From Minisyncoccia bacterium (GTDB lineage Bacteria; Patescibacteriota; Minisyncoccia; Phycocordibacterales; UBA9973), in assembly GCA_049303835.1 (NCBI GenBank), contig JBAQNN010000003.1:114820-178819 (forward strand): a stretch of 64,000 bases of DNA. The letters are read 5' to 3'. The notes beneath the pieces were generated by a model that worked only from the letters and a program-made list of their open reading frames with translations, had not been told where the DNA came from and did not search any database. Made by a program: the position numbers and the translations under genes. Each line of letters starts with the position of its first letter. Position 1 is the stretch's first letter. Shown piece by piece: positions 35,130-35,645 of the stretch.

Positions 35130-35645
35130 TTATAAGTTTCTATTCTCTGGCTCGACATAATGGATGCCAATTAAGTTGAACAGATCTTTTTCTTCTTTCA
35201 CATCAAACTTTTCACCATACTTGAATAAATACCCACCCGAACTCTTGAATCCATTTCGGACCCAACCATTAGCTAAAACATAGCGACTAAACTCTGCTGA
35301 GCCTGTGCGAATTGCATAGATTAATCCCCAATTTCCTTCTTCCGCAAAGAAGAGATCAAGTTTAATTCCGCTAGGAAGTATTCTTTGTGTGTATTTACAT
35401 GGCAATTCTCCTTTTACCTTTTCCCATTGATTTACTACTTTTGCTATGCCACCTTGAGATAAGTCGATTCCAAATGGTTTTGGTATTGCCACAATCTCTA
35501 TATCTCCGACCTCGGCTTTTTTGCGACGAACGGAGCCTGCTATTTCAATTCTTTCGCAGTACGGTTTCAGTTGTTCTAAAACCTCTAGTGCGATTTTGTA
35601 TGCCTCCACATACGGATATTTTATTTTTTTTATTTGTTCATTCAT
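35130..35645 (-). CDS. minimal DNA polymerase X family protein (171 aa, ASFV Pol X-like)
   Basis: Pol-beta nucleotidyltransferase motif GSVRRKKAEVGDIEIV; LDLFF...GLIYAIRTGSAEFSRYV; C-terminal LIGIHYVEPENR; co-linear with the 174-aa ASFV Pol X as recalled from memory. Confidence 0.6.
   Translation of the reverse strand: MNEQIKKIKYPYVEAYKIALEVLEQLKPYCERIEIAGSVRRKKAEVGDIEIVAIPKPFGIDLSQGGIAKVVNQWEKVKGELPCKYTQRILPSGIKLDLFFAEEGNWGLIYAIRTGSAEFSRYVLANGWVRNGFKSSGGYLFKYGEKFDVKEEKDLFNLIGIHYVEPENRNL

Follow-up and report, generated by a model that had tools for sequence, protein, structure and literature searches.

The window analysed in this study, a 64,000-nucleotide stretch from a Minisyncoccia bacterium, holds a short gene whose product resembles a family-X DNA polymerase (PolX). 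Two questions are raised by this locus: whether so small a protein is a polymerase at all, and what use the surrounding mobile element may have for it. The 171-aa reading frame was present where a preliminary description had placed it, on the minus strand, which had been left unstated, and the peptides quoted from it (GSVRRKKAEVGDIEIV, LDLFF, GLIYAIRTGSAEFSRYV, and LIGIHYVEPENR) were all found in the protein, named mini-PolX here. The gene and the features around it are listed in Table 1.

Table 1. Features of the integrated element that carries the mini-PolX gene (positions in the window)
Feature	Position	Strand	Basis
Whole integrated element, ~9.5 kb, mosaic	30872..40420		Limits from other contigs
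tRNA-Glu(UUC), attachment site and left junction	30874..30946	plus	ARAGORN
Large serine recombinase, 567 aa	30900..32603	minus	Pfam Resolvase, Recombinase, Zn_ribbon_recom; PHROG integrase 5.5e-44
64-aa protein between replicase and recombinase	32617..32811	minus	ORF; homologue in the same place in L023
PrimPol + PriCT-1 + helicase protein, 762 aa	32823..35111	minus	Pfam Prim-Pol 2.5e-30, PriCT_1 1.1e-5
Mini-PolX gene, 171 aa	35130..35645	minus	ATG-to-stop ORF; Pfam, AF2, Foldseek, conservation
97-aa protein (hyp97)	35749..36042	minus	ORF; recurrent upstream neighbour in Patescibacteria elements
Two tandem intrinsic-terminator hairpins	36251..36317	minus	Directly after the hyp334 stop; terminator scan
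334-aa protein (hyp334)	36320..37324	minus	ORF; 14 nt downstream of TrlF; weak AbiEii PADLOC match
TrlF-family ATPase, 1001 aa	37339..40344	minus	NCBIfam NF045780 4.7e-181, residues 10-998

Since mini-PolX has thousands of homologues and its dN/dS against four of them is 0.06-0.10, the gene is more than a chance reading frame, and it is under strong purifying selection. The Pfam thumb domain PF14791 matches residues 114-170 (29.3 bits, cut-off 25), and the palm domain PF14792 stays below its gathering score (17.8 bits vs 25; residues 17-59 only); despite this, the palm is placed in PolX by fold and profile searches. No PHROGs or PADLOC family was matched at E<=0.1, and these two libraries do not contain the family. 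About 35 residues precede the GS motif at the N-terminus, and the C-terminus, R169-N-L, follows directly after the thumb; both termini are conserved, with other members of the family stopping at this same point. No 8-kDa, fingers (HhH), or PHP domain was found in mini-PolX by alignment with Thermus thermophilus PolX, which covers residues 155-314 of 575, and the earlier view that the protein lacks the 8-kDa and fingers domains and consists of palm and thumb only is borne out by this alignment and by the fold.

A bacterial PolX usually has about 570 residues (575 in T. thermophilus), and homologues of mini-PolX are labelled 'DNA polymerase/3'-5' exonuclease PolX' by JGI pipelines, as would be expected if mini-PolX were a decaying piece of a full-length enzyme or a mis-called reading frame. 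However, homologue lengths are uniform among thousands of sequences (median 175 aa; 5th-95th percentile 157-243), and the conserved termini, the low dN/dS, and the confident two-subdomain AlphaFold (AF2) model oppose such a reading, the probability of which is negligible.

The AF2 model of mini-PolX is compact, with a pLDDT of 93.4. When it was searched with Foldseek, the 50 best matches were all PolX enzymes (probability 1.0, TMq 0.64-0.79), among them T. thermophilus PolX and Pol lambda, beta, and mu. A family profile searched against the PDB matched 48 distinct sequences, again all PolX, with T. thermophilus PolX first (residues 155-314, 2.6e-8) and African swine fever virus (ASFV) Pol X second (7.8e-6 to 4e-5). 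With hhalign, residues 29-169 of mini-PolX align to residues 30-173 of ASFV Pol X (probability 78.8%, E 1.7e-5, 27% identity, 132 columns), and with hmmsearch profile positions 26-168 align to residues 28-173, i.e. the full length; the ASFV sequence used is identical to PDB 1JAJ. The likeness to PolX, for which the preliminary description had named a check, is present in both Foldseek and hhalign results. Judged by sequence and predicted fold, mini-PolX truly belongs to family X (Pol beta-like), of which it keeps the palm and the thumb alone. The label 'ASFV Pol X-like' holds for the palm and thumb architecture, the size, and the collinearity, but a particular closeness in descent is not supported: T. 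thermophilus PolX is the closest solved relative by both profile and fold (TM 0.78), and ASFV Pol X is absent from the 50 best Foldseek matches. Therefore, 'ASFV-like' would describe an architecture rather than a special kinship.

The active-site residues of mini-PolX are G37, S38, R40, R41, D48, E50, D97, R113-T114-G115, E152, and R169. The palm signature of nucleotidyltransferases (NTases), hG[GS]-x9-13-D-x-[DE] with the third carboxylate carried by a later strand, is present, and the spacing G-S-x-R-R-x5-G-D-x-E is identical to that of Pol beta (G179...D192). Conservation was counted in an alignment of 139 distant relatives (36-62% identity) and the query, 140 rows in all. Palm residues are nearly invariant (G37 in 139 rows, S38 in 137, R40 in 136, R41 in 139, D48 in 138), as are the other two carboxylates (E50 in 132, with six D; D97 in 136, with three E) and the thumb residues (R113 in 136, T114 in 138, G115 in 139, E152 in all 140, R169 in 139); more broadly, the thumb motif R113-T114-G115-S116 together with E152, F156, P166, and R169 is conserved among the relatives. 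The hhalign alignment pairs D48, E50, and D97 with D49, D51, and D100 of ASFV Pol X, and RTGS with FTGP; the carboxylates and the residues that bind the triphosphate are intact, and the motif order and spacing agree with ASFV Pol X as had been suggested. The metal-binding motif itself had been given as D-x-D; it is in fact D48-I-E50, and this D-x-E form is the norm of the family. The canonical YF/HF is replaced by I-R, with Arg invariant in the family at the position equivalent to Pol beta F272, and the positions equivalent to N279 and R283 are S and L. Because of the glutamate at the second carboxylate and these replacements, substrate or fidelity may differ from those of known PolXs.

Several known systems resemble mini-PolX, each in part. 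ASFV Pol X (O174L; PDB 1JAJ, 5HRB) shares the palm and thumb and aligns over its full length (174 vs 171 aa); however, mini-PolX has Glu and not Asp at the second metal ligand and IRTGS in place of HFTGP. The ASFV enzyme comes from a eukaryotic nucleocytoplasmic virus, whereas mini-PolX comes from bacterial phages and integrative elements, where its activity is predicted and, unlike in the ASFV case, no recurrent AP-endonuclease or ligase partner accompanies it. Bacterial PolX1 (T. thermophilus, 3AU2/3B0X; Bacillus subtilis) has the same core (TM 0.78, rmsd 3.0 A) and the same GS-x-RR...GD-x-[DE] spacing, but it is a chromosomal repair gene product of about 570 aa with 8-kDa, HhH fingers, and C-terminal PHP exonuclease/AP-endonuclease domains, all lacking in mini-PolX, which rides mobile elements. 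PolX2 also lacks the PHP and 8-kDa domains, has a conserved polymerase active site, and is horizontally spread (PMC12926913); by its description it is set apart by an extra alpha-helical C-terminal domain, whereas mini-PolX ends two residues past R169. The same fold is found in a 252-aa 'putative PolX' of Escherichia coli phage vB_EcoM_IME392 and in PolX of Pithovirus, Catovirus, and Harvfovirus (Foldseek E 4e-10 to 3e-8). These proteins have 17-26% identity to mini-PolX, and most are larger (250-360 aa, with additional subdomains at the N-terminus), although the Harvfovirus one has 174 aa; the IME392 gene adjoins a DNA ligase gene, a pairing not seen in the mini-PolX family.

A word-indexed search returned 2779 homologues of mini-PolX, and representative clusters numbered 8099 at E<=1e-3 and 3905 at E<=1e-10. 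The homologues are mostly about 155-200 aa in length, and their hosts include Patescibacteria, Bacteroidota, and other phyla. The closest loci are in genomes assembled from metagenomes of Paceibacterota and other Patescibacteria, in agreement with the earlier impression of a 'CPR-like' genome; likewise, the genome had been called SD-poor, and SD-like cores precede 6 of 62 reading frames against a background of 10%. In addition, 136 IMG/VR phage contigs carry homologues, together with genes for repressor, integrase or transposase, DnaB, DnaC, portal, terminase, and major head proteins. A tblastn search of the INPHARED phage genomes gave a single weak match, the E. coli phage IME392, and the family is hardly sampled by cultured phages. 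Among cultured bacteria, Cecembia rubra DSM 28057 carries a homologue in a 33-kb prophage (L052, IMG/VR 2728369475_000001), and homologues also occur in Belliella calami, Flagellimonas marina, and Aestuariibaculum suncheonense. Neighbourhoods were sampled at 76 genomic and 65 viral loci. Most neighbours are small proteins without assigned function; integration genes are frequent at the genomic loci (serine recombinase at 18 of 76, tyrosine integrase at 14 of 76). Primase-helicases are the commonest direct neighbours (AAA_25 7, Prim-Pol 5, DUF5906 2), along with DEDD 3'-5' exonucleases (Rv2179c-like 4, RNase_T 2). No ligase, AP-endonuclease, or other partner in base excision repair recurs beside mini-PolX among the 25 commonest of 50 Pfam families. 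Overall, the family sits in the replication or early regions of temperate tailed phages and in small integrative elements of many bacterial phyla. It is very large and apparently undescribed; in the literature searched, no description of a PolX of prokaryotes or phages with palm and thumb only was found, and one may exist elsewhere.

The window belongs to this pattern. A 'mobile element' had been proposed, and it is evident from the serine recombinase, the tRNA-Glu junction, and the occurrence of the element at 99.8% identity within differing flanks elsewhere: contigs L173 and L174 match it down to the left limit and then diverge. At the right limit, the 96.6% identity to a Paceibacterota genome (L006) stops. 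The G+C content is lower (0.29-0.35) over 35-41 kb. The 3' end of the recombinase gene overlaps tRNA-Glu, and in L023 a related recombinase adjoins tRNA-Glu and tRNA-Ser. Since no displaced 3' fragment of tRNA-Glu was found at the right end within three mismatches, the limits of the element were set by contig comparison. Only a partial 5' copy of tRNA-Glu was found, to the left of the tRNA. In this Paceibacterota-type genome, mini-PolX belongs to the backbone of a ~9.5 kb element that is integrated at tRNA-Glu.

The PrimPol-helicase gene, whose product also matches PHROG DNA primase and polymerase-primase families, starts 18 nt past the mini-PolX stop; the start context aaattatATGAAT is common to both genes, and the terminator scan detected no terminator between them. 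From the sequence, mini-PolX appears to be co-transcribed with the PrimPol-helicase and the large serine recombinase. The 64-aa protein encoded between the latter two has no match among Pfam and NCBIfam profiles. Upstream, hyp97 has no profile match either (Pfam, PHROG, NCBIfam, PADLOC), and its homologues occur at position -1 or -2 of mini-PolX in five loci. Hyp97 was considered as a trans-acting stand-in for the missing DNA-binding domains and rejected, being found in only 5-6 of 76 loci.

On the other side of hyp97 lies the ATPase gene that had given rise to the idea of a split or redistributed repair module, in which mini-PolX would fill gaps and a PHP-SMC-like ATPase would process ends, the two together making up a divided bacterial PolX. 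A distance of 1.7 kb separates the two genes, which share a strand and travel in a 5.3 kb block with 96.6% nucleotide identity to L006; moreover, PHP-like HxH (DLHTHT) and GSDAH motifs can be read in the N-terminal region of the ATPase, and its relative Ppl has a PHP exonuclease domain (PMC12904381). A PHP fold was not detected by Pfam at E<=10, a phmmer search of the PDB with residues 1-313 gave nothing relevant, and the single-sequence AF2 model of the region is unusable (pLDDT 30). The gene fits NF045780 (TrlF) over nearly its full length (604.8 bits, cut-off 350), and models of Ppl match in the C-terminal ATPase part (NCBIfam 6.2e-25; PADLOC 1.1e-15), where an ABC/SMC-type ATPase region gives Pfam AAA_21 and SMC_N matches below cut-off. 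It is thus a full-length member of an established family with a putative function, known from other contexts (bioRxiv 10.1101/2020.06.02.129163), and Ppl, a single-gene anti-phage exonuclease with a PHP 3'-5' exonuclease domain, is related to TrlF and defends alone (PMC12904381).

The genomic survey also opposes a split enzyme. TrlF lies near mini-PolX at only two of 76 genomic loci, the window and L006, which share the same block, and at none of the 65 viral ones. The 25 commonest of 50 Pfam families in direct neighbours include neither a PHP nor an SMC family. The tandem terminators, which fold at -31.3 kcal/mol (z = -4.54; 0 of 200 shuffles as stable), end the TrlF-hyp334 unit ahead of the unit of hyp97, mini-PolX, PrimPol, and recombinase. 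Because of the rare co-occurrence and the terminators between the two units, the split module is not supported; it is highly improbable, and mini-PolX is not functionally tied to the TrlF gene. In other elements the same cargo position holds restriction-modification systems. TrlF is read from its sequence as putative defence-type cargo and not as a partner of mini-PolX; hyp334, which is co-inherited with TrlF in L006, is the probable partner of this cargo gene.

What mini-PolX may do for the element can be approached from its active site. D48, E50, and D97 would hold two metal ions, the triphosphate of the incoming dNTP would be gripped by G37, S38, R40, and R41, and the thumb, through R113-T114-G115 and a network of R40, E152, and R169, would close over the newly formed pair. 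As it has no domains that clamp DNA, mini-PolX would work distributively, filling short gaps or extending short primers on element DNA, for example in finishing replication intermediates primed by PrimPol or in patching nicks and gaps. From sequence and model we infer that mini-PolX would polymerize DNA and would depend on a template, and it is probably a catalytically competent, stand-alone minimal family-X polymerase for short-gap synthesis on the DNA of the element. Its most likely role, as judged from sequence, would be gap filling in element replication or repair. Palm and thumb alone are enough for polymerase activity in ASFV Pol X (PMC13252658). Against such a role, recombination by serine and tyrosine enzymes creates no gaps, so that a polymerase has no obvious task there.

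A larger part in replication would fall to mini-PolX if it were the elongating polymerase of a two-protein replisome, in which the PrimPol-helicase unwinds and primes, independently of host Pol III. A PrimPol-helicase or AAA_25 primase-helicase-like gene adjoins mini-PolX in ~14 of the ~20 closest Patescibacteria loci, the 18-nt spacing and the common start context suggest co-expression, and in several phage loci a DEDD 3'-5' exonuclease directly upstream would supply proofreading. However, mini-PolX has no clamp or processivity factor, and PolX enzymes, notably ASFV Pol X, are distributive short-patch enzymes, which counts against a replisome. Many loci have no primase or helicase nearby, such as L002, where mini-PolX overlaps a tyrosine integrase, and the ~40 kb phages with mini-PolX encode modules of the DnaB/DnaC type, by which the replisome of the host is normally recruited. 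Overall, a replisome of this kind appears unlikely.

It is also conceivable, at a similarly low probability, that mini-PolX is another kind of NTase, either a terminal transferase that adds tails to DNA 3' ends or protects them, or an enzyme of anti-defence or signalling. The DxE motif and the invariant Arg at the F272-equivalent position depart from canonical PolX (canonical frequencies in PMC9226535), all DNA-binding HhH subdomains are missing, and a truncated Faustovirus PolX with palm and thumb extends DNA independently of a template (PMC13252658). Fusions of mini-PolX to HNH and DUF4326 exist, and the phage early or accessory regions in which it lies are rich in methylases, HNH, and unassigned genes, where counter-defence genes cluster. 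However, only PolX polymerases have this thumb with its conserved R-E-R network, and every PDB match of the mini-PolX profile is a DNA polymerase. An MNT or antitoxin-type NTase was rejected: the PolX thumb is present, no MNT/KNT structure was matched in the PDB, and no HEPN or toxin family of the kind that accompanies MNT-type NTases is among the 25 commonest of 50 Pfam families in the 133 genes directly adjoining mini-PolX.

As a minimal gap-filling polymerase, mini-PolX would bear on both polymerase classification and enzyme engineering. The latest census of bacterial polymerases contains PolX1 and PolX2 only (PMC12926913), and the family would add a third prokaryotic/viral PolX architecture. 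ASFV Pol X, which in 2026 still counted as the smallest DNA polymerase known (PMC13252658), has been used for its small size in mirror-image and engineered DNA synthesis (PMC10805118, PMC13252658), for which the family would offer many natural minimal scaffolds. It also raises a puzzle, as elements that integrate by conservative site-specific recombination and rely on the replisome of the host nevertheless retain so small a polymerase. In addition, the ultra-small genomes of Patescibacteria gain polymerase genes through mobile elements. More speculatively, and with little probability, the family may form a third class of prokaryotic/viral PolX containing the smallest natural polymerases, which together with a PrimPol-helicase, and in phages a DEDD exonuclease, would make a host-independent machine for replication or repair. 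Members of such a class would have about 155-175 aa, equal to or below ASFV Pol X.

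The mini-PolX gene, which runs from ATG to stop over 171 codons and contains all the peptides quoted in the preliminary description, encodes a true palm + thumb module of the PolX family. In Pfam searches, its residues 114-170 matched the Pol beta thumb (PF14791) with 29.3 bits against a cut-off of 25, and the palm (PF14792) scored 17.8 bits, below its cut-off of 25. A single-sequence search of the PDB gave T. thermophilus PolX as the best match, aligned over residues 167-313, which are its palm and thumb. A profile (A1) built from 51 family members matched 48 distinct PDB sequences, every one a family-X polymerase, in the order T. 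thermophilus PolX (2.6e-8, residues 155-314), African swine fever virus (ASFV) Pol X (7.8e-6 to 4e-5, residues 28-173 of 174), and Pol lambda, beta, and mu. The AlphaFold2 model on this profile is confident (pLDDT 93.4, pTM 0.87), and all 50 PDB matches listed by Foldseek are PolX enzymes with a probability of 1.0, the best among them being T. thermophilus PolX (TM 0.78-0.79, rmsd 3.0-3.3 Å). In a viral structure library, giant-virus PolXs matched best, including a 174-aa Harvfovirus protein (TM 0.69/0.68), and a fragment of ASFV O174L matched weakly (E 0.019). Mini-PolX therefore shares its palm + thumb architecture with ASFV Pol X, while among solved structures the core of bacterial PolX stands closest to it.

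The likeness to ASFV Pol X that had been proposed from the sequence was borne out by hhalign with a sequence identical to 1JAJ (probability 78.8%, E 1.7e-5, 132 aligned columns), in which RTGS aligns with FTGP and the catalytic triad D48/E50/D97 falls on D49/D51/D100. The metal-binding motif, however, had been given as D-x-D and is in fact D-x-E (G47-D48-I49-E50). The spacing of G37-S38-x-R40-R41-x5-G47-D48-x-E50 is that of Pol beta G179...D192, and, as we read the alignment, R40, E152, and R169 are the counterparts of Pol beta R182, E316, and R333. Across 140 aligned rows (the query and 139 sequences that each represent a 50%-identity cluster and share 36-62% identity with it), the key residues are almost invariant: E152 is kept in all 140 rows, G37, R41, G115, P166, and R169 in 139, D48 and T114 in 138, S38 in 137, R40 and R113 in 136, the third carboxylate D97 in 136 (Glu in three more), and E50 in 132 (Asp in six more). 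In pairwise comparisons with four homologues, dN/dS is 0.06-0.10, a mark of strong purifying selection, and the sequence comparisons indicate that this selection is for catalysis. With its two-metal and triphosphate-binding residues conserved, mini-PolX is very probably an active PolX-family nucleotidyltransferase. The family departs from canonical PolXs, whose residue frequencies have been published (PMC9226535), in using Glu as the second metal ligand and in having I-R at the YF/HF position; Ser and Leu occupy the positions of Pol beta N279 and R283. Its substrate preferences could depart from those of known PolXs, and a non-templated or non-polymerase nucleotidyltransferase, possibly serving counter-defence, is a rather unlikely reading of the protein.

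A word-indexed search returned 2779 homologues, the best 120 of which are 158-205 aa long (nearly all 167-180), 63-95% identical, and in many cases from Patescibacteria MAGs. When 1.84 billion representatives were searched exhaustively with a profile, 8099 clusters were obtained at E<=1e-3 (full-length PolXs may be present in the weak tail of this count), 3905 at <=1e-10, and 274 at <=1e-30. Among the top 150, which have a median length of 175 aa, most proteins stand alone, and it is extremely improbable that mini-PolX is a gene fragment. Two rare apparent fusions, which may be gene-calling merges, carry an N-terminal HNH endonuclease (P0177, 351 aa) or DUF4326 (P0197, 311 aa). A relative is encoded at 324 loci in data with one genome per species; these lie in Paceibacterota, Saccharibacteria, Nomurabacteria, and Moranbacteria, in many Bacteroidota, including the cultured Aestuariibaculum suncheonense, Flagellimonas marina, Aestuariivivens sediminis, Cecembia rubra DSM 28057, and Belliella calami, and in Verrucomicrobia, Acidobacteria, Chloroflexi, Proteobacteria, Planctomycetes, and one Nanoarchaeota MAG. 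Since copies from Patescibacteria and Bacteroidota are ~65% identical, the sequences point to horizontal spread.

The gene is also present on 136 IMG/VR viral contigs. These are ordinary temperate tailed phages with a CI-like repressor, integrase or Mu-like transposase, DnaB-like helicase, DnaC-like loader, and methyltransferases, together with portal, large terminase, and major head protein genes; mini-PolX lies in the early/replication region. IMG/VR provirus 2728369475_000001 and the Cecembia rubra DSM 28057 locus (L052) agree at 100% identity, and therefore a cultured strain carries mini-PolX in a predicted prophage, of 33 kb, with an exonuclease gene directly upstream. This gene (L052 9435-9989) encodes an Rv2179c-like/PHROG-255 DEDD 3'-5' exonuclease, and the same arrangement in L033, L047, L053, and L108 makes it a feature of several Bacteroidota prophages; the exonuclease may act as a separate proofreading partner of mini-PolX. 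A search of 50,697 deposited phage genomes yielded a single weak relative, a 252-aa 'putative PolX' of E. coli phage vB_EcoM_IME392, the gene of which adjoins a DNA ligase.

Open reading frames were called in 76 non-redundant genomic and 65 viral loci, and neighbours were clustered and annotated by cluster representatives. Within eight genes of mini-PolX, a large serine recombinase was found in 18 of the 76 genomic loci, a tyrosine integrase in 14, and an N6/N4 methylase in eight. The gene resides in replication modules of both phages and integrative elements. In the 133 co-directional genes adjoining it, the leading Pfam families were AAA_25 (7), Prim-Pol (5), PriCT_1 (5), Rv2179c-like 3'-5' exonuclease (4), and KaiC-type ATPase (4), with DUF5906, PriCT_2, and RNase_T at two each; PHP, SMC, ligase, and AP-endonuclease families were all absent from the 25 commonest of the 50 families. 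Since primase-helicases and stand-alone DEDD exonucleases are the most frequent partners, a replication/repair accessory role fits better than an ASFV-type base-excision repair module. Because palm + thumb alone is sufficient in ASFV Pol X (PMC13252658), mini-PolX would be a distributive DNA polymerase working on the DNA of the element, where it would fill short gaps or elongate short primers; such synthesis for the element is its somewhat favoured role.

A 2026 census of bacterial polymerases recognizes only PolX1 and PolX2, the latter with an extra C-terminal helical domain that mini-PolX lacks (PMC12926913), a 2022 survey of prokaryotic PolXs covers full-length enzymes (PMC9226535), and ASFV Pol X was still named the smallest known DNA polymerase in 2026 (PMC13252658). 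In a literature search of partial coverage, no described prokaryotic or phage palm + thumb-only PolX was found, although annotation pipelines already tag homologues as 'PolX'. What appears to be new here is a PolX family of minimal size and DxE type that travels on mobile elements; it is mainly a lead for biochemistry and enzyme engineering.

Features of the mini-PolX element and its integration site (window coordinates)
Feature	Position	Strand	Remark
TrlF-family ATPase	40344-37339	minus	
hyp334	37324-36320	minus	
tandem terminators	36317-36251	minus	directly after hyp334
hyp97	36042-35749	minus	
mini-PolX	35645-35130	minus	
PrimPol-PriCT-helicase	35111-32823	minus	
hyp64	32811-32617	minus	
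large serine recombinase	32603-30900	minus	gene end overlaps tRNA-Glu(UUC)
tRNA-Glu(UUC)	30874-30946		overlapped by recombinase gene end

The NCBIfam TrlF model aligns with the neighbouring ATPase (1001 aa) over its full length (604.8 bits, cut-off 350); the name TrlF comes from the temperature-restricted locus of Photorhabdus (bioRxiv 10.1101/2020.06.02.129163). The ATPase part of the neighbour matches models of anti-phage Ppl. In its N-terminus, PHP-like HxH and GSDAH motifs can be seen by eye, but Pfam and PDB searches did not support a PHP fold there. The preliminary description had raised the possibility that this PHP-SMC-like protein and mini-PolX form a split repair module, which now appears very improbable. 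Among the 76 genomic loci, TrlF accompanies mini-PolX in just two, the window and Paceibacterota contig L006, which share the same block, and it does so in 0 of 65 viral loci; other elements carry restriction-modification genes at the equivalent cargo position. In addition, two strong terminator hairpins (-31.3 kcal/mol, z = -4.5) part the TrlF-hyp334 unit from the polymerase unit, and Ppl, a relative of TrlF described as combining a PHP 3'-5' ssDNA exonuclease with an NTPase domain, works alone as a single-gene defence system (PMC12904381). Mini-PolX is thus independent of TrlF, and TrlF-hyp334 is read as defence-type cargo. The gene for the acidic-tailed hyp334 follows that of TrlF at a distance of 14 nt, and the two are inherited together in L006; hyp334 may be a partner of TrlF, by analogy with TrlG in Photorhabdus.

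The element spans ~30872-40420, and the exact mini-PolX protein is found on 14 public contigs. Two of these (L173, L174) carry the element at 99.8% identity from window 30872 onward with different flanking genes, one with a diverged tRNA-Ser/tRNA-Glu arrangement, and therefore the same element occupies tRNA-Glu in different hosts. The 5.3-kb block from TrlF to mini-PolX (window 35091-40420) is 96.6% identical to L006 5228-10559, beyond which L006 carries another replicase, of AAA_25 type, and another recombinase. The PrimPol gene shares 85% identity with its counterpart in L005, and the recombinase with its tRNAs 71% with L023. Thus, the element is a mosaic of exchangeable modules with the highly conserved mini-PolX gene at a junction. 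The identity with L006 breaks just past the mini-PolX stop codon, which suggests that this gene is a recombination hinge between modules.

Mini-PolX and PrimPol are separated by 18 nt, in which the terminator scan found no terminator-like site, and share the start context aaattatATGAAT, which points to an operon. The start context aaattatATGAA, without a Shine-Dalgarno core, is common to both and hyp64 (minus strand, window 35646-35675, 35112-35141, and 32812-32841, respectively); SD-like cores at -20..-5 precede 6 of 62 window ORFs against a 10% background. A dedicated role of mini-PolX as elongation partner of the PrimPol-helicase is rather unlikely.

At window 30782-30835, 91 nt upstream of the intact tRNA-Glu(UUC) gene, there is an incomplete and interrupted copy of its 5' two-thirds (acceptor/D arm, 15-nt insert, anticodon arm), perhaps a scar left when an element integrated earlier at this site. 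Just outside the right end, a 66-codon open stretch (40421-40618, plus strand, frame 1; …RYIYYGCTKARGTDSKCGYTEE…) resembles a large serine recombinase in its zinc-ribbon region and may have been left behind by another element. Three blastn segments in window 50862-52589 match the small-gene region of another mini-PolX element (L002/L003/L004) at 69-88% nucleotide identity; the ORFs there gave no clear Pfam family, with weak ArdC-N and DUF4116 matches, and the region may be what is left of a second mobile element, one that lacks a polymerase gene.
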